From a virus (Duplodnaviria > Heunggongvirae > Uroviricota > Caudoviricetes), in IMG/VR virus record IMGVR_UViG_2778261643_000001, positions 1 through 5,820 of that record: a DNA stretch of 5,820 bases; one strand, given 5' to 3'. Position 1 is the first letter of the stretch, and each line of letters opens with the position of its first letter. The notes under the pieces are model-generated. The model did no database searches. It had not been told where the DNA came from and saw only the letters and a list, made by a program, of their open reading frames with translations. The translations under genes were made by a program, and so were the position numbers. Below are positions 1 to 5,820 of this stretch, piece by piece.

Positions 1-392
<392 letters not shown>

Positions 393-393
393 G

Positions 394-416
394 AAAAGCC
401 CGGCGTTCGGGCTTTT
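394..416. terminator. Bidirectional rho-independent terminator between the convergent plus-strand gene and the minus-strand operon
   Basis: Stem GCCCG (398-402) / CGGGC (408-412) with a 5-nt loop, flanked by AAAA (394-397) and TTTT (413-416). Either strand therefore reads a GC stem followed by a U-run. It sits between the stop at 390-392 and the stop of the minus-strand gene at 439-441. Confidence 0.7.
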
Positions 417-438
417 CTGTTATGACGGGTTCAATTTT

Positions 439-1413
439 TTATCCGTTACCGCGCGACGGTTTCTGCGTGATAAACGTCTCAAGCATCTTTTCCGCAATTG
501 CCGACCAGGTGTGACACTGGACCTTTTCAGCATTTTTCACGCGATCAACGCGAGCAATAACCTCATCCCAATCAATCCGCGACTTGATAACCATATGGTT
601 CACCAAAGCCAGGCGATCTGGCGGAAGGCAATCGGGAGGCGTTAATACCAACGCCCCGCACATTGCCGCCTCAAGTACAGTTAATCCAAGGCTTTCGGGA
701 TGCGTAACGATAAACACGTCACTCTTACGCAATTCAGCTGCAAATTCGGTTGCTGGTACCGGCGTCCGTCTGTATGGGGTTACCGATATATTCCCCGGAT
801 CAATGGTAATCAATCCGTCATCGGTCAACGTTCTGGCCTCATACGGAACGGTCAGACGCTGAAGGTTCATAAGGATACTTAAGGAGTGATCAAACCCACT
901 AACATCAAATGCAGCGTGGTCTACAAAAATACGCAGAACATCGTCTGTTTTGGTTTCCAGATGGAACAGATCCTGATTCGCTGCCCATCCAACATGTTTG
1001 TTAAAGCGATTATGACGCTCTAACCTGCCTGGATTATCCAGGTACCGCCAGGTATCATCGCGGACAGTAAAAGTAATATCGACTGGTGCCGAATCCAGCA
1101 TAGAACCGTCGTATACCTGGGCTACCCATCCAGTGAATCGACGACGCAGTTGCACGCCTATTTCCCTGGGCACCGTAGTAAAATACCGCAATCCTGGCGC
1201 TAAAATGGCTTTCGCAGAACACGAGGTCGCAGCGGTCAACACAGCTTCAACATAATCCTCCGGGCTTTCGACGCCGGGGGAATATGGACGATGGTATTGC
1301 AATGTTACCCCTGCCTCACTAAAGGCGCAGGCCAGGTTGTAAGCCCACATTTCCGTATATGTTTTCACATCACTGATAGCTTCAAATTTTCGCCCAATGA
1401 TCAGGATGTTCAT
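439..1413 (-). CDS. dbn: GT-B fold (GT1/GT4-like) glycosyltransferase-like protein, about 324 aa; alternative upstream start at 1437 overlapping the helicase stop
   Basis: Long minus-strand ORF. The ATG at 1413-1411 is preceded by GAGGAAAAG with about 7-8 nt spacing (strong RBS); the ORF-track start at 1437 forms TAATG with the helicase stop. N-terminus MNILIIGRK and C-terminal region SDVFIVTHPESLGLTVLEAAMCGALVLTPPD resemble the conserved E-x7-E region of retaining GT4 glycosyltransferases. The symbol is from my recollection that the gene downstream of ban in P1 is called dbn; it has not been verified by search. Confidence 0.75.
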   Translation of the reverse strand: MNILIIGRKFEAISDVKTYTEMWAYNLACAFSEAGVTLQYHRPYSPGVESPEDYVEAVLTAATSCSAKAILAPGLRYFTTVPREIGVQLRRRFTGWVAQVYDGSMLDSAPVDITFTVRDDTWRYLDNPGRLERHNRFNKHVGWAANQDLFHLETKTDDVLRIFVDHAAFDVSGFDHSLSILMNLQRLTVPYEARTLTDDGLITIDPGNISVTPYRRTPVPATEFAAELRKSDVFIVTHPESLGLTVLEAAMCGALVLTPPDCLPPDRLALVNHMVIKSRIDWDEVIARVDRVKNAEKVQCHTWSAIAEKMLETFITQKPSRGNG

Positions 1414-1436
1414 CGGCTTTTCCTCATTCCATTGCA

Positions 1437-2801
1437 TTAATAATCCTCTTGCCAGTCAGCACCAGCATAGTTATCAAACCGTGAGTATTGGCCGTTAAAA
1501 GCCAATCTCACCGTGCCAATTGGGCCATTTCGTTGCTTTCCGATAATTACCTCGGCAATGCCCTTCATTTCGCTATCCGGGTGATAAACTTCGTCGCGAT
1601 ACAGAAACATGATCAGGTCTGCGTCCTGCTCAATTGCTCCTGATTCACGTAAATCTGAATTTACCGGTCGTTTGTCCGCACGCTGTTCAAGCGATCGATT
1701 AAGTTGTGACAATGCCACCACCGGTACTTGTAATTCCTTCGCCAACGCCTTCAGTGAGCGAGAAATCTCGGCAATTTCCAGCGTTCGGTTATCTTGCAGC
1801 TCGGGGACGCGCATAAGTTGCAGGTAGTCGATCATAATCATGCTCAAACCACCATTTTCTTTATAAACACGACGAGCGCGGGAACGAAGCTCTGTAGGTG
1901 TCAGGGCGCTTGAGTCATCAATAAAAATATTCTGCTTGTCCAACAGAATCCCCATTGCGCCAGAAACCCGCGCCCAATCCTCGTCGTTAAGTTGCCCTGT
2001 TCGAATACGAGTCTGATCAACGCGTGCAAGAGAAGCCAGTGAGCGCATCATCAGCTGGTGGCTCGGCATCTCAAGGCTAAAAACCAATACGGGCTTATCG
2101 TTACGGACTGCGGCATTTTCGACGAGATTCATCGCAAACGTAGTCTTCCCCATCGATGGGCGGGCGGCGACAATAATGAGATCGGACGCCTGAAGTCCTG
2201 CCGTCTTCTTATTGAGATCGGTAAATCCGGTATCAAGCCCCGTTACACCATCATGCGGTCGCTGAAACAACTCTTCTATGCGAGATACCGTTGCATCGAG
2301 AATGCTGGCGATATCTTTTGGACCACTACCGCTCTTTTGTCGTTTTTCAGCTATTTCAAAAACGCGGCGCTCGGCCATATCCAGCAATTCATTGCTGCCC
2401 CTGCCATCCTGCGCATATCCAGCTTCGGCTATTTCATTTGCGACGGAAATCATTTCACGAACAACCGCGCGTTCACGAACGATATCCGCATAAGCACAAA
2501 TATTTGCCGCGCTGGGCGTGTTCTTTGACATCTCCGCAAGGTACGCAAAACCACCGGCGCGTTCTAATTTACCGTTCTGTTCAAGTGCTTCAGCAAGTGT
2601 TATCAAATCAATCGGTTTGCCATGACTTAATAACCTCTCCATCTCACTGAAAATTTCACGATGAGCACTGGTAAAAAAATCATCAGCAACTATACGATCT
2701 GCAACTTCATCCCAGCGGCAGTTATCAAGCATTAAGCCACCAAGTACAGCTTGTTCTGCACTAAGGGAATTTGGCATGGATTCAAGAGGGGATGCAGACA
2801 T
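1437..2801 (-). CDS. ban: DnaB-family replicative DNA helicase, phage P1 Ban-like; likely start at ATG 2801, with an in-frame GTG at 2807
   Basis: The translation aligns by eye along its whole length with E. coli DnaB: SAEQAVLGGLMLDN, AARPSMGKTTFAMNLVENAA (Walker A), LIMIDYLQLM, VPVVALSQLNRSLEQRADKRPVNSDLRESGAIEQDADLIMFLYRDEVYH, IIGKQRNGPIGTVRL. The N-terminus is shorter than host DnaB, as I recall for P1 Ban. GGAG lies 5 nt upstream of the ATG at 2801. The context of three tRNAs, a lipoprotein and a coupled downstream gene argues for a phage paralogue, not chromosomal dnaB. Confidence 0.93.
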   Translation of the reverse strand: MSASPLESMPNSLSAEQAVLGGLMLDNCRWDEVADRIVADDFFTSAHREIFSEMERLLSHGKPIDLITLAEALEQNGKLERAGGFAYLAEMSKNTPSAANICAYADIVRERAVVREMISVANEIAEAGYAQDGRGSNELLDMAERRVFEIAEKRQKSGSGPKDIASILDATVSRIEELFQRPHDGVTGLDTGFTDLNKKTAGLQASDLIIVAARPSMGKTTFAMNLVENAAVRNDKPVLVFSLEMPSHQLMMRSLASLARVDQTRIRTGQLNDEDWARVSGAMGILLDKQNIFIDDSSALTPTELRSRARRVYKENGGLSMIMIDYLQLMRVPELQDNRTLEIAEISRSLKALAKELQVPVVALSQLNRSLEQRADKRPVNSDLRESGAIEQDADLIMFLYRDEVYHPDSEMKGIAEVIIGKQRNGPIGTVRLAFNGQYSRFDNYAGADWQEDY

Positions 2802-3086
2802 TAGCACTCCACCCAGGCGTGCTGAATGTCAGATATAATCGGCATACTCAAATCACTCCTAACGATATGAGTCATCACCAGAAAATCAGGATTAATGCGC
2901 CGGACTCTTCCCGGCTGTCACACCGAATCGCCAGGATGGTGAGTCCCTGAATCCGCTATCCCTCCAACGGTGACTTGCACATTCCGGCTACCTGGTTTGT
3001 TGCCTGAGCTAGGGGAAAAGGCAATCCCTTTAACGTCACCAGACCGCTAACGACGCATGTGCCAGACGCCGTGTTACAACCAAATA

Positions 3087-3162
3087 TGGTGGCCCCTACC
3101 GGACTTGAACCGGTGACCGTGCGATTATGAGTCGCCAGCTCTAACCACTGAGCTAAAGGGCC
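3087..3162 (-). tRNA. tRNA-Ile2-like, anticodon CAU (presumed lysidine-modified, AUA-decoding); tRNA-Met not excluded
   Basis: Minus-strand sequence GGCCCTT-TA-GCTC-AGTGGTTA-GAGC-T-GGCGA-CTCATAA-TCGCA-CGGTC-ACCGG-TTCAAGT-CCGGT-AGGGGCC-A-CCA folds as a 76-nt cloverleaf with encoded CCA. The acceptor and D arms closely resemble E. coli ileX as I recall it. P1 is reported to carry a tRNA-Ile (tentatively trnI). Confidence 0.88.
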
Positions 3163-3189
3163 GGATTACTGCCAATTTTGCTTACGCTT

Positions 3190-4017
3190 TTATTTCACCG
3201 GAACAAACGGAACAGCGGCATTACTGGTCATATACTGCGGTAATGTACCGTTCCATTTGTTGATCGCTTCCAACTCCATAACACCGGGGTTCTGGCGCAG
3301 AGCTTCACCACGTAAACGAATGGCATCAGCTTCGGCCTGGGCTTTTGTGCGAATAGCATCAGCCTGTCCGGCAGCTTCCGCGCGCAGCATGTTGGCCTCT
3401 GCTTCACGTTGTTTGACCTCTTGCTCGCGTTGCAGGGTTTTTTGGTTTGCCGTGACTTTGGCGTTAATACTGTCAATAACTGTTGGCGGGTATTCTGGCT
3501 TACCTACATAAGAGAGGCTCATCACCTGAATGCCGATTGGCGTCATTTCTTCCTGAATGTCTTTAAGGGCTGCATCAAGCAATTCAGATTTGCCACCGTC
3601 GATAAATTTGTCGGTGGTCATTTTGCTGGCTAACCGGTTCAGAGCATCTGCAACCTTCTGGCGTAGATCGGTATCAGTAATATCATCTACACCTTTGCGA
3701 TAGGTCTGAAATACCGTTGTGACTTTTGCTGGATCAACCTTGTAGGCTACGCCGATGTGGTAACCAATGGTTGTTCCGTCGCTCATCTGGAAGCTGAACG
3801 GCTCATCGTATGTCTTCATTTGCTTAAAGGTCGGGAAGATATAAACTTCAGTATTCAAGCCTGTCCAGTAGCGACCAACGCCAACTACTTCACCGATACC
3901 TTTATCATCCCCCAGCTTATTTACTTTGATCCCTACGTTACCTGGCTCTACCCGATCGCATCCGGTCAGGCATAAAGAACCCAAAATAATCGCTGCACTA
4001 ATCAACGTTTTTTTCAT
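3190..4017 (-). CDS. SPFH/Band-7 (stomatin/prohibitin-like) domain lipoprotein with C-terminal coiled-coil, 275 aa
   Basis: N-terminal signal peptide with lipobox (MKKTLISAAIILGSLCLTGC, Cys at the +1 position). The central region reads like an SPFH domain and the C-terminus is an Ala/Glu/Arg/Gln-rich predicted coiled-coil (QREQEVKQREAEANMLRAEAAGQADAIRTKAQAEADAIRLRGEALRQ). RBS AGGA lies about 9 nt before the ATG. It may correspond to the P1 'putative lipoprotein' (plp), but that name is a tentative recollection. Confidence 0.85.
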   Translation of the reverse strand: MKKTLISAAIILGSLCLTGCDRVEPGNVGIKVNKLGDDKGIGEVVGVGRYWTGLNTEVYIFPTFKQMKTYDEPFSFQMSDGTTIGYHIGVAYKVDPAKVTTVFQTYRKGVDDITDTDLRQKVADALNRLASKMTTDKFIDGGKSELLDAALKDIQEEMTPIGIQVMSLSYVGKPEYPPTVIDSINAKVTANQKTLQREQEVKQREAEANMLRAEAAGQADAIRTKAQAEADAIRLRGEALRQNPGVMELEAINKWNGTLPQYMTSNAAVPFVPVK

Positions 4018-4234
4018 TAATTAATTTCCTGGTTTTTTCACGAAAAAAGACTACTGCGAAAGCCGGGTAAATGAGCGCAAGAAGGACTCCCAACAATACA
4101 AGTATTGTGCTGTTAGATGAGATCATATTTGGCAAAAGCCAAACATACAGAACCAGTGACACAATCAAACAGAGGACGGCATAAATATATAACCGCACCC
4201 ATAGCGTTCGACATTTGTTCGGATTGTTCTGCAT
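3998..4234 (-). CDS. Small two-TM inner-membrane protein (78 aa) overlapping the SPFH lipoprotein start by 20 nt; likely co-translated partner
   Basis: Two hydrophobic segments (LYIYAVLCLIVSLVLYVWLL and STILVLLGVLLALIYPAFAVVFF) with a basic C-terminal tail. GGAG lies about 9 nt upstream of the ATG at 4234. The 3' end overlaps the downstream lipoprotein gene. SPFH proteins are commonly encoded with a small membrane partner (NfeD-type), although this protein is too short to carry an NfeD OB-fold. Confidence 0.6.
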   Translation of the reverse strand: MQNNPNKCRTLWVRLYIYAVLCLIVSLVLYVWLLPNMISSNSTILVLLGVLLALIYPAFAVVFFREKTRKLINEKNVD

Positions 4235-4393
4235 CCTCTCACTCCATTATTTAACGAATAAAAAAGCTGCGGTGCCGGGTGCCTCCCGGTGTCCTTTGGC
4301 TGGTTATCCACCGTGGACGGGGAAACAAGGAGAAATGAATGGACTGATATAACCATTTCCCCGCGTGCGCTTAGCCGCATTCACCGCAACGGA

Positions 4394-4453
4394 AAGAGCA
4401 TTCTTGGTGGACCTGTAGATTGGGATATGAACCCGTTACAGGAGAATGCTCTT
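4394..4453. repeat. Nested-hairpin repeat element, copy A: 11-bp outer inverted repeat enclosing the conserved core GTAGATTGGGATATGAACCCGTTACA (4415-4440)
   Basis: Outer arms AAGAGCATTCT (4394-4404) and AGAATGCTCTT (4443-4453) are exact reverse complements. Inside, CCTGTA (4412-4417) pairs with TACAGG (4437-4442), and GGG (4422-4424) pairs with CCC (4432-4434) around a 7-nt loop. The core is 24/26 identical to 5095-5120. Confidence 0.6.
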
Positions 4454-4516
4454 ACCTGTTGCGTACTCCGTTTCATGGAGTTAACGGCGGACTAACCATC
4501 CGCCCCAAATTTATAA

Positions 4517-4930
4517 TTAGCTGCTTGCTGACGGATAGTTTTTGGTTAATTGGACCAAGCGAGCATCAAGAGCTTTTCGATAATCAATCATGCTTCCGAG
4601 CTGAATTTCCAAATCCAACTGCTTGCACTGGTCTATAGTGAGGAATTTATCTGTTCCAATGAATCGAACAAGCTTATTTATGCGCTGGCATAGCTGAGCA
4701 CGTTCGATAATCATTCGCTTGTGGTATTCCTCCAAGCCGTCAATTTTGCCCAACGGAGCTGCTATTTCATTAAATTCACGAAGTGGTATTTTGAGTTCGT
4801 TACCGAACACATCTACAACATCAATTTCAGATGCATCTTCTTTCGAAACTTTATCGACCTGATAACTGGTGCTAACCACTAAAGAAATAACAAACTGCTC
4901 TTTCTGCATAATTACCGTTCTCGCACTCAT
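4517..4930 (-). CDS. Hypothetical protein, 137 aa (130 aa if started at the ATG at 4909); no recognisable family
   Basis: Uninterrupted ORF in a stretch that looks somewhat lower in GC than the helicase region by hand count of a 100-nt sample of each. Neither candidate ATG has a convincing Shine-Dalgarno. It is bracketed by the two near-identical repeat cores at 4415-4440 and 5095-5120. I do not recognise any motif in the protein. Confidence 0.5.
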   Translation of the reverse strand: MSARTVIMQKEQFVISLVVSTSYQVDKVSKEDASEIDVVDVFGNELKIPLREFNEIAAPLGKIDGLEEYHKRMIIERAQLCQRINKLVRFIGTDKFLTIDQCKQLDLEIQLGSMIDYRKALDARLVQLTKNYPSASS

Positions 4931-5047
4931 GGGTGACAGTTTCTAAATAAATTGTGATGGTCGGTGCTGAACTCCGACACAGGGTTGTAGCAAGCCCCGC
5001 AAAGCGCGCACTACTGTAGTTGCGGCACATCAGCCTGTGCATTCACC

Positions 5048-5139
5048 ACAACGTTGAGAACACTGATTGTCACGCTGCAACGCAACATTTATTCGTAGAT
5101 TGGGATATGACCCCGTTACGCCAGTGTTCTCAACGTTGT
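5048..5139. repeat. Nested-hairpin repeat element, copy B: perfect 18-bp inverted repeat (5048-5065 / 5122-5139) enclosing a 56-nt spacer with core GTAGATTGGGATATGACCCCGTTACG (5095-5120)
   Basis: ACAACGTTGAGAACACTG and CAGTGTTCTCAACGTTGT are exact reverse complements. Inside, CGTA (5094-5097) pairs with TACG (5117-5120). Compared with copy A the closing pair changes T:A to C:G, a compensatory change, while the 22-nt interior stays almost identical. Confidence 0.6.
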
Positions 5140-5285
5140 AGTGCCGGTTACGGTTCCGGCCAGGCCTCTTCCTCAACGGGGTGTTCTCCATACGGACTAC
5201 CGTTTATTGGTCGTTCCTGCGGTTTATGTTGTGAAGCCAGATGCTTATCTTCTGGTTGCTTCTAAGAGCTGCACTTCATCACAAC

Positions 5286-5359
5286 GGTAAGGGTACTTCG
5301 TAGGGATTCGAACCCTCTGCCAAGCACGGCGATCTCCGACGTCGCAAAATACCCTTACC
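5286..5359 (-). pseudogene. tRNA-like pseudo-element: a canonical T-arm (GGGTTCGAATCCC) inside a perfect 10-bp terminal inverted repeat (GGTAAGGGTA / TACCCTTACC); not a foldable canonical tRNA
   Basis: The minus strand reads GGTAAGGGTA...GCAGAGGGTTCGAATCCCTACGAAGTACCCTTACC. The 10-bp terminal helix and the T-arm are clear, but I cannot place a D-arm or anticodon arm at canonical distances, and there is no encoded CCA. It lies 8 nt downstream (in transcription order) of tRNA-Thr. Confidence 0.4.
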
Positions 5360-5367
5360 TGTTGTGT

Positions 5368-5443
5368 TGGTGCCGGTTAACGGACTCGAACCGCTGACAT
5401 CCTGCTTACAAGGCAGGCGCTCTACCAACTGAGCTAAACCGGC
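5368..5443 (-). tRNA. tRNA-Thr, anticodon UGU
   Basis: Minus-strand sequence GCCGGTT-TA-GCTC-AGTTGGTA-GAGC-G-CCTGC-CTTGTAA-GCAGG-ATGTC-AGCGG-TTCGAGT-CCGTT-AACCGGC-A-CCA folds as a 76-nt cloverleaf with a 7-bp acceptor stem and encoded CCA. P1 is reported to carry a tRNA-Thr. Confidence 0.9.
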
Positions 5444-5445
5444 AT

Positions 5446-5521
5446 TGGCGATGGTGGATGGATTTGAACCATCGACCCGTTGATTAACAGTCAACCGCTC
5501 TAACCGCTGAGCTACACCATC
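5446..5521 (-). tRNA. tRNA-Asn, anticodon GUU; sequence unlike host tRNA-Asn
   Basis: Minus-strand sequence GATGGTG-TA-GCTC-AGCGGTTA-GAGC-G-GTTGA-CTGTTAA-TCAAC-GGGTC-GATGG-TTCAAAT-CCATC-CACCATC-G-CCA folds as a 76-nt cloverleaf with a perfect acceptor stem and anticodon stem. Only 2 nt separate it from tRNA-Thr. P1 is reported to carry a tRNA-Asn. Confidence 0.85.
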
Positions 5522-5650
5522 ACTTGCCGGGTACGTCTCCGGCGAGGGCTTCCACCTCCGTATGCTTTTCGGCGCACCGCGCCCTGGCTGCAATTCGGTA
5601 ACAGGGGATGCATAACCCTGGCTTCCAGCGTGATTAGCGCCTTCAGCATG

Positions 5651-5665
5651 ACGGGATATACCCGT
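5651..5665. other. Short palindromic hairpin ACGGG-ATATA-CCCGT, related to the GGGATAT..CCCGT core of the repeat family
   Basis: 5-bp stem ACGGG/CCCGT with an ATATA loop. It shares GGGATAT and CCCGT with the cores at 4421-4436 and 5101-5116. It lies about 130 bp upstream (in transcription order) of tRNA-Asn. Confidence 0.4.
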
Positions 5666-5682
5666 AGCAAGACGTTATTCCT

Positions 5683-5703
5683 AAATTGCTAAAAGCAATT
5701 GCT
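5683..5703. promoter_or_regulatory. Candidate repressor operator (P1 C1-type?) with palindrome ATTGCT-AAA-AGCAAT and an overlapping third ATTGCT; probably overlaps the promoter of the tRNA-ban operon
   Basis: Minus-strand reading ATTGCTTTTAGCAATTT matches about 13/17 positions of the P1 C1 operator consensus as I recall it (ATTGCTCTAATAAATTT). It sits in the about 300-bp non-coding region upstream of the first minus-strand gene. No comparable site lies directly upstream of the helicase gene (2802-3086). The -35 and -10 elements could not be placed confidently. Confidence 0.3.
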
Positions 5704-5820
5704 GTTACGCCGAATGAAAAAGGACGTAACAGGTAAGGACGCTGACCAAAAAGATGGCCCTGGATTTGCCCCTATATTTCCAGACATCTGTTATCACTTA
5801 ACCCATTACAGGCCCGCTGC

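Follow-up and report, generated by a model that had tools for sequence, protein, structure and literature searches.

The stretch of DNA analysed here, referred to as the window, comprises 5,820 nucleotides (positions 1 to 5,820 of the IMG/VR virus record IMGVR_UViG_2778261643_000001, Caudoviricetes) and is the ban operon of a P1-like phage-plasmid; the element in question is a palindrome built from ATTGCT hexamers at 5683-5703, in the leader of that operon, which the initial annotation had proposed to be a repressor operator. Positions 60-5760 are P1-type phage (Punavirus) DNA with 98.5% identity to RCS47 and 97% to P1, and are 100% identical, in a single piece, to NZ_CP122822 (plasmid unnamed6 of E. 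coli ETEC1731). The genes have the order and orientation of the ban operon, every supported one between 439 and 5521 lying on the minus strand, as had been proposed. On this strand the unit would be read through the leader (5522-5760, the surviving 239 nt of about 660 nt according to alignments and the 132 loci compared below), tRNA-Asn (GTT; 5446-5521) and tRNA-Thr (TGT; 5368-5443), both found by tRNA scan, a crAss001_48-family gene (4517-4930; Pfam PF21825, 3e-15; PGAP annotation), an SPFH/Band 7 lipoprotein gene (3190-4017; Pfam Band_7, 1e-30), a tRNA with anticodon CAT (3087-3162; tRNA-Ile in the P1 record and by PGAP), ban, encoding the DnaB-type replicative helicase (1437-2801; Pfam DnaB_C 1e-107 and DnaB 1e-34; P1 annotation), and dbn, encoding a glycosyltransferase-like protein (439-1437; P1 annotation and Pfam scan), up to a bidirectional intrinsic terminator at 394-416. 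The cassettes between the tRNA genes differ from those of P1: the crAss001_48-family gene sits in a 458-bp cassette (4491-4948) that P1 and RCS47 lack, and the SPFH cassette (3172-4259) stands in place of tciABC of P1. The terminator, a G+C-rich hairpin with the 11-bp stem AGAAAAGCCCG/CGGGCUUUUCU (-18.5 kcal/mol, z = -3.0), is the sole convincing one and marks the operon end, in agreement with the claim that the unit is not ended earlier; no convincing internal minus-strand terminator was found in the window before 394-416.

The three hexamers, the palindrome and the neighbouring hairpin reported in the initial annotation are all present. ATTGCT occurs at 5685-5690 (plus strand), 5694-5699 (minus strand) and 5698-5703 (plus strand), giving ATTGCT-AAA-AGCAAT at 5685-5699 and, at full length, the perfect dyad AATTGCT-AAA-AGCAATT at 5684-5700, while ACGGG-ATATA-CCCGT (ACGGGATATACCCGT) lies at 5651-5665. 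The likeness of this second hairpin to the repeat core of the operon also holds, its minus strand reading ACGGGUAUAUCCCGU against ACGGGUUCAUAUCCC at 4422-4436 and the variant ACGGGGUCAUAUCCC near 5102-5116. A count of perfect hairpins (stem 7 bp or longer, loop 3-5 nt) gives two in the window, against a mean of 1.08 in shuffled sequences, 28% of which contain at least two; ATTGCT is found 8 times against 4.1 expected, a count reached by 11 of 200 shuffles. The palindrome alone is not beyond chance, and its significance comes solely from the comparison with relatives.

According to the initial annotation, 5683-5703 would be an operator of the C1 repressor, bivalent by its dyad and controlling a promoter for a 5-kb tRNA/ban transcript, and a weight matrix of P1 C1 operators had been suggested as a check. 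We built this matrix from the 20 C1 operators annotated in the P1 record AF234172; statements on P1 and P7 operators rest on the GenBank annotations AF234172 and AF503408 and on background knowledge of these phages. Nineteen of the 20 annotated operators score 14.5-27.2 bits, the exception at 6.0 being Oc1b, which is the weak partner in a bivalent site; with each operator left out in turn, 18 of 20 still reach at least 15 bits, with Oc1c at 9.8 and Oc1b at -1.8. The candidate scores 6.6 bits (5683-5699, minus strand) and 5.8 bits (5685-5701, plus strand), compared with at least 14.5 bits for all stand-alone operators, and the third ATTGCT scores -6.2. Of 189,568 positions in P1, between 65 and 89, all unannotated, score at least as high, and in NZ_CP122822, to which the matrix applies because its C1 protein is that of P1 apart from the temperature-sensitive c1.100 residue, the candidate ranks 60th and 84th, beneath 21 sites of at least 14.5 bits. 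The operator reading draws on the fact that the three ATTGCT copies are the 5' hexamer of the C1 operator consensus, that the minus-strand 17-mer ATTGCTTTTAGCAATTT agrees with the consensus ATTGCTCTAATAAATTT at 13 of 17 positions, that the candidate is within the top 0.05% of P1 positions and that the annotated half-site Oc1b is as low-scoring. However, the C1 operator is an asymmetric 17-bp site near this consensus, in which T8, A9 and A10 are invariant and C7 and T11 nearly so among the 20 operators; the candidate fits both ends but in the CTAAT core departs from C7, A9 and T11, having T or A at position 7, T at 9 (minus-strand site) and G at 11. The geometry differs as well. The bivalent sites Oban and Oc1ab are 28 bp long, their two 17-mers sharing 6 bp through the A/T-rich tails; the half-sites of the candidate share 15 bp, and 15 bp separate its ATTGCT ends. 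Moreover, the motif is not conserved among phages with the same C1: P1, P7 and RCS47 have GTGCTGTTAAGCAC at the homologous place, although NZ_CP122822, which carries the allele of the window, has a near-identical C1, and relatives with the window's allele keep the true Oban upstream. No sigma-70-like site was detected in 5522-5820 on either strand by a scan that is insensitive and also misses the annotated P1ban in an intact relative. On these sequence grounds, namely matrix, geometry and absence of conservation, a C1 operator at the palindrome appears ruled out, and we regard it as extremely improbable. ATTGCT by itself is a poor proxy for a C1 operator, and it is the CTAAT core that discriminates. 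Nor is the palindrome the only operator-like sequence, as had been stated, because on the C1 matrix it is surpassed by 1431-1447 (12.75 bits) and 4011-4027 (10.2 bits). The former (plus strand, ATTGCATTAATAATCCT), located at the ban/dbn junction, is the best match of the window; it is conserved in P1 (72649-72665), where it is not annotated as an operator, and scores just under the weakest stand-alone operator.

The annotated control site of this operon is placed elsewhere. The P1 record gives a bivalent C1 operator, Obanab (formerly Op72ab), which 'controls expression of ban' and overlaps the promoter P1ban at the dmt end, 654 bp beyond the 5' end of tRNA-Asn, with a 'dicF-like region' annotated between Obanab/P1ban and tRNA-Asn; in the P7 record Op(ban) 'regulates expression of trnRNA, ...', so that the tRNA genes are included. 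ban was reported to be controlled by C1 and induced upon C1 inactivation (PMC4713147). Of the 13 intact relatives aligned, 11 carry the 28-bp Oban sequence ATTACACTAATAAATTTATTAGAGCAAT at an unchanged distance; that of the E. albertii plasmid pESA138_1 differs by one base and D6 has none. In NZ_CP122822 it occupies 48259-48286, corresponding to window coordinates 6181-6208, that is 480-525 bp upstream of the candidate palindrome. Like the candidate, Oban of P1 and P7 lies upstream of tRNA-Asn in the same operon and shows ATTGCT in a dyad arrangement. It is nevertheless composed of the 17-mers ATTGCTCTAATAAATTT and ATTACACTAATAAATTT (27.2 and 23.1 bits, 6-bp overlap) and overlaps the -35 and -10 boxes of a promoter, whereas the candidate is a dyad of 15-17 bp that has no CTAAT core and no detected promoter, reaches 6.6 bits, exists in one allele only and is found about 500 bp further downstream. 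It is Oban, not the candidate, that makes the operon repressor-controlled, and the point of control would be this bivalent site overlapping Pban, about 660 bp upstream of tRNA-Asn at the dmt end. From the earlier proposal of one repressor-controlled, tRNA-bearing transcript, the long co-oriented unit under C1 control with three tRNAs stands, according to the P1 and P7 records, while its placement of the control site at 5683-5703 does not; a C1-controlled operon with embedded tRNAs is already known from the existing annotation of both phages.

Neither Pban nor Oban is found in the window, where phage homology stops at 5760 and the right end (IRR) of an IS2 element follows at 5761-5820 (minus strand, 98% identical to IS2 copies). 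Because the window ceases to be phage DNA at 5760, the control region falls outside it and is separated from the operon by IS2; as read from the alignments, the insertion at 5761 cuts this operon copy from Oban and Pban. The IS2 transposase open reading frames (ORFs) are on the minus strand and directed toward 5761, so that they point into the operon and are co-directional with it (orientation taken from the annotated IS2, U82084). Expression of the operon in this copy may have been abolished or may be driven by IS2 independently of C1, and P1 offers no guide to how it is regulated, if it is expressed at all. In the intact leaders, a conserved terminator-like hairpin (GCCCAUCUUCGGGUGGGC) followed by 6-8 U is found about 170 nt after Pban (locus L006, 1637-1656, minus strand), at the end of the dicF-like segment, and transcripts must read through it or start again; the insensitive promoter scan picked up no second promoter in these leaders. 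The dicF-like segment itself occurs in two allelic forms that differ by compensatory changes (alignment A4, columns 79-121 and 188-215): at each of the pairs 81-119 and 91-110, 6 sequences have C-G or G-C and the remaining 6 have U-A; the Rfam DicF model gave no match to it at E up to 1.

Among P1-like elements the leader 5522-5760 is near-invariant except for a hypervariable patch at 5667-5701, for which the 132 loci compared (116 viral contigs collected by a pattern scan anchored on the conserved flanks, plus annotated relatives) yielded 18 alleles of 34-48 nt. Where the window reads AAATTGCTAAAAGCAATTGCT, P1, P7 and RCS47 read AAAGTGCTGTTAAGCACCGCT between nearly identical flanks, with GTGCT-GTTA-AGCAC at the place homologous to the palindrome. 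On the minus strand, which is the transcribed one, the site of the ATTGCT palindrome corresponds to a hairpin that we call H2 (AAUUGCU-UUU-AGCAAUU, 5684-5700, 7-bp stem and 3-nt loop), and every patch allele has a hairpin at this place. The alleles read, on the minus strand, AUUGCU-UUU-AGCAAU in the window, SJ46 and others, GGUGCU-UAAC-AGCACU in P1, P7 and RCS47, GCCAUU-AAUGGC with loop GCUU, GGUU or GAUU in D6 and others, GCCAUU-GAUGGU with loop GCUU or GUUU, AUUGCU-UUU-AGUAAU, and AUGUG-UUU-CACAU in E. albertii plasmids. They comprise four unrelated stem classes (AUUGCU, GGUGCU, GCCAUU and AUGUG), each forming a hairpin of 5-7 bp in the same place; against shuffled sequences the single classes reach p values of 0.03-0.1, and Fisher's combined p over the four is 0.0024. 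Within the GCCAUU class the loops GCUU, GGUU, GAUU and GUUU vary and the stems stay. Of the H2 stem positions, 53 of 54 are paired on the minus strand, including 6 G.U pairs, compared with 47 of 54 on the plus strand, where the same six become A.C mismatches.

H2 is flanked by two conserved hairpins on the same strand. H3 (ACGGG-UAUAU-CCCGU, 5651-5665) has five pairs that are formed in 22 of 22 distinct sequences, with an invariant stem and a loop change in one allele. H1 (CUGUUACGUC/GGCGUAACAG, 5702-5732, arms 5723-5732 and 5702-5711) has eight core pairs, likewise formed in all 22; in its stem CUGUUACG/CGUAACAG one pair alternates between A-U and G.U and would be A.C on the plus strand, which is the polarity seen in H2, so that the six G.U pairs of the H2 alleles and the one in H1 are all on the minus strand. 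The 5' arm of H1 overlaps the 3' arm (5727-5760, minus strand) of a long hairpin, E4, whose loop and 5' arm have been removed by IS2, the insertion point falling inside its loop. In intact relatives E4 reaches -47 kcal/mol (z = -4.9; consensus fold, columns 396-482).

In our view, held with a probability of about 0.68, the palindrome encodes a short RNA stem-loop, H2, belonging to the structured tRNA/ban leader, and is not a C1 operator. H2 would be set between the conserved hairpins H1 and H3, in a patch of 34-48 nt whose sequence varies while its pairing is kept, and selection would act on the pairing of H2 rather than on its sequence. We infer that H2 folds in the transcript, where it would serve as a cis-acting structural element of the pre-tRNA/mRNA leader. 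It might set the fold or stability of the leader, or offer an adjacent A/U-rich single strand to RNase E for the release of tRNA-Asn. The setting of H2 fits such a role: tRNA-Asn begins 163-179 nt downstream of it, and an A/U-rich, apparently unpaired stretch separates it from H3. The same dyads might alternatively be a DNA site for another dimeric protein of host or phage, with a specificity that varies by lineage, since dyad symmetry is kept in several alleles and a hypervariable patch within near-invariant flanks looks like a specificity determinant. This is very unlikely because, as DNA, the dyads of several alleles (L084, L041, L047, L130 and the P1 type) are broken by A.C mismatches, yet the minus-strand RNA pairs fully through G.U. 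In addition, no promoter to be regulated was detected nearby by the insensitive scan mentioned above, and no candidate protein was found to co-vary with the allele, the alleles assorting independently of neighbouring upstream alleles.

Several observations weigh against a functional stem-loop. A covariance model was built on H1-H2-H3, and column-wise pair counting on the model-guided alignment showed pairing in 57% of the H2 cells, which is equalled by shuffles; H1 and H3 are paired in every cell (100%) yet show hardly any variation. H2 did not pass because from one allele to another its hairpin is shifted by 1-5 nt, and the case for H2 consequently rests on the per-allele analysis. The individual H2 hairpins are weak (-2.7 to -7.2 kcal/mol), with only a marginal advantage over shuffled sequences; the 239-nt leader taken as a whole shows no such advantage (z = -1.6), and the window's own H2 allele is equally stable on both strands. 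The structures around H2 are not unique either, H1 competing with E4 and with the stem UUCGGCGU/AUGCUGAA, which could enclose H2 and H3, and any transcription, folding and processing of the leader are predictions. The patch may, alternatively, be without function, a tolerated, fast-evolving or recombining spacer in which palindromes are by-products, for example of slippage or template switching. Such a palindrome is expected about once per window by chance, the per-allele p values are 0.02-0.1, H2 does not pass the formal covariation test and is out of register between alleles, and E. albertii pESA138_1 (L010) carries, homologous to 5684-5700, a 13-nt tandem duplication of the H2 unit (AATTGTTAAAAGC then AATTGCTAAAAGCAATT). 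Against this stand the four unrelated stems that all pair at one place (combined p = 0.0024), the wobble substitutions, 6 of 6 of the kind tolerated on the transcribed strand only, and the GCCAUU class with its variable loops and constant stems, so that a functionless spacer is unlikely, if still deserving of some credence. What remains is an ordinary leader stem-loop for which the sequence comparison offers some support, in an operon copy decapitated by IS2.

Further searches around H2 were negative. H2 as a terminator was dismissed by eye, as no U run follows it in any allele. A search of the P1 genome for an antisense target of the P1 patch allele gave a longest complementary match of 10 nt, equal to the shuffled expectation, and Rfam scans by E-value of the window and of the intact leader returned the tRNAs and sub-threshold STnc100, tmRNA-like and miRNA models, none of them at 5651-5760. 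Scanning genome contigs for more distant homologues produced two loci only, both with the P1 allele.

Stem-loops in leaders and spacers guide processing by RNase E and RNase P in E. coli tRNA operons and in the T4 tRNA cluster. H2 is like these stem-loops of tRNA precursors in being placed in a transcribed leader, followed by an A/U-rich, apparently single-stranded stretch and a further hairpin, with pairing rather than sequence kept; the likeness is one of position and anatomy only. In phage early transcripts, RNase III hairpins separate the cistrons, as do the T7 sites R0.3-R1.3. With its 6-7 bp H2 is too short for RNase III, and the likeness is limited to the long repeats of the operon, E1-E4, which resemble the T7 sites as long hairpins between cassettes and tRNAs of one co-oriented unit but differ in bearing a tRNA-like T-arm motif, which is missing from those sites. 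A further comparison is with the c4 antisense RNA and its targets, which belong to immI of P1 and P7. The H2 leader is like c4 in that both would be small structured RNAs of P1-type phages in which short variable segments set lineage specificity; it differs in that the P1 allele has no complementary P1 target beyond the chance 10 nt, and no Rfam family, including C4, matches the leader.

The four long hairpins, E1 (5279-5367), E2 (4377-4467), E3 (5041-5146) and E4 (5727-5760 together with L006 1355-1462), are exceptionally stable, with z-scores of -4.7 to -7.1 and stems of roughly 20-26 bp. E1 and E2 have a common basal stem on the minus strand, CAACAGGUAAG/CUU(A/U)CCGUUG with a bulged A, to which that of E4 is related, the basal stem of E3 being different (CUACAACGUUGAG/CUCAACGUUGUGG), and E2 and E3 have a common core resembling a tRNA T-arm. 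As scanned in P1 and NZ_CP122822, the E1-E4 motifs are confined to the region of the ban operon, where they fall between exchangeable cassettes, and none is matched by an Rfam family. The structured repeats of the initial annotation are thereby confirmed, and the excision proposed there would require long hairpins of this sort; an RNA processing role, for example through RNase III, is plausible for them. A bolder proposal, which we hold to be distinctly unlikely, is that H2 and the approximately 20 nt after it are a lineage-specific recognition determinant; together with the four long hairpins they would make the locus an array of cassettes, both tRNAs and accessory genes, that is organised by hairpins and has an RNA processing code of its own. 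The determinant might be the seed of a small RNA derived from the leader and released upon excision of tRNA-Asn, or a decoy or target for a factor of the host or of a rival phage.

The weight of these observations for biology at large is small, as the ban operon with its tRNAs and Op72/Oban is already annotated in P1 and P7. The leaders and inter-cassette spacers of P1-like elements are nevertheless packed with conserved RNA-like hairpins that are ignored or overlaid by doubtful ORFs such as upl and plp, and these hairpins matter when such very common P1-like plasmids are annotated. In P1, upl and plp (opposite strand, L001 5496-6065) cover E2, E3 and E1, extend into tRNA-Thr and are perhaps not genes. 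The minus strand of E2 at 4405-4442 (CCUGUAACGGGUUCAUAUCCCAAUCUACAGGUCCACCA) shows a minihelix like an acceptor/T-arm followed by a CCA-like end, resembling the 3' half of a tRNA, and E1 bears a canonical T-arm (GGGUUCGAAUCCC); judged by sequence, these T-arm motifs could be decayed tRNA genes or tRNA-like processing signals. Adjoining E2, the stretch 4268-4388 (minus strand; 94% identity in P1) was matched by the Rfam model of the Salmonella small RNA STnc100, but below the gathering threshold (37.8 bits where 47 are needed; E = 1e-5).

The other end of the window, 1-59, is the end of an ISVsa5/IS10-type insertion sequence and probably the contig boundary, positions 1-62 being 100% identical to ISVsa5 ends (1,158 plasmid records) and P1 homology beginning at 60. 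It cuts the baseplate gene 5, whose 3' part occupies 60-392 on the plus strand, convergent with the operon (annotation of P1, RCS47 and NZ_CP122822), and the ORF 21-392 is an IS-phage fusion. Because both ends are repeated insertion sequences and not phage DNA, the window looks like a whole short-read contig, and the insertion sequence ends at 1-59 and 5761-5820 suggest that it comes from a defective or rearranged P1-like element. The tRNA with anticodon CAT at 3087-3162 is assigned to Met by ARAGORN and to Ile by P1 (ileX-like, 89% identical) and PGAP, the latter annotation corresponding to a lysidine-dependent AUA reader. Finally, a 78-aa ORF at 3998-4234 (minus strand), which is not annotated in the RefSeq record NZ_CP122822, encodes a hydrophobic, membrane-protein-like product and shares 20 nt with the start of the SPFH gene.

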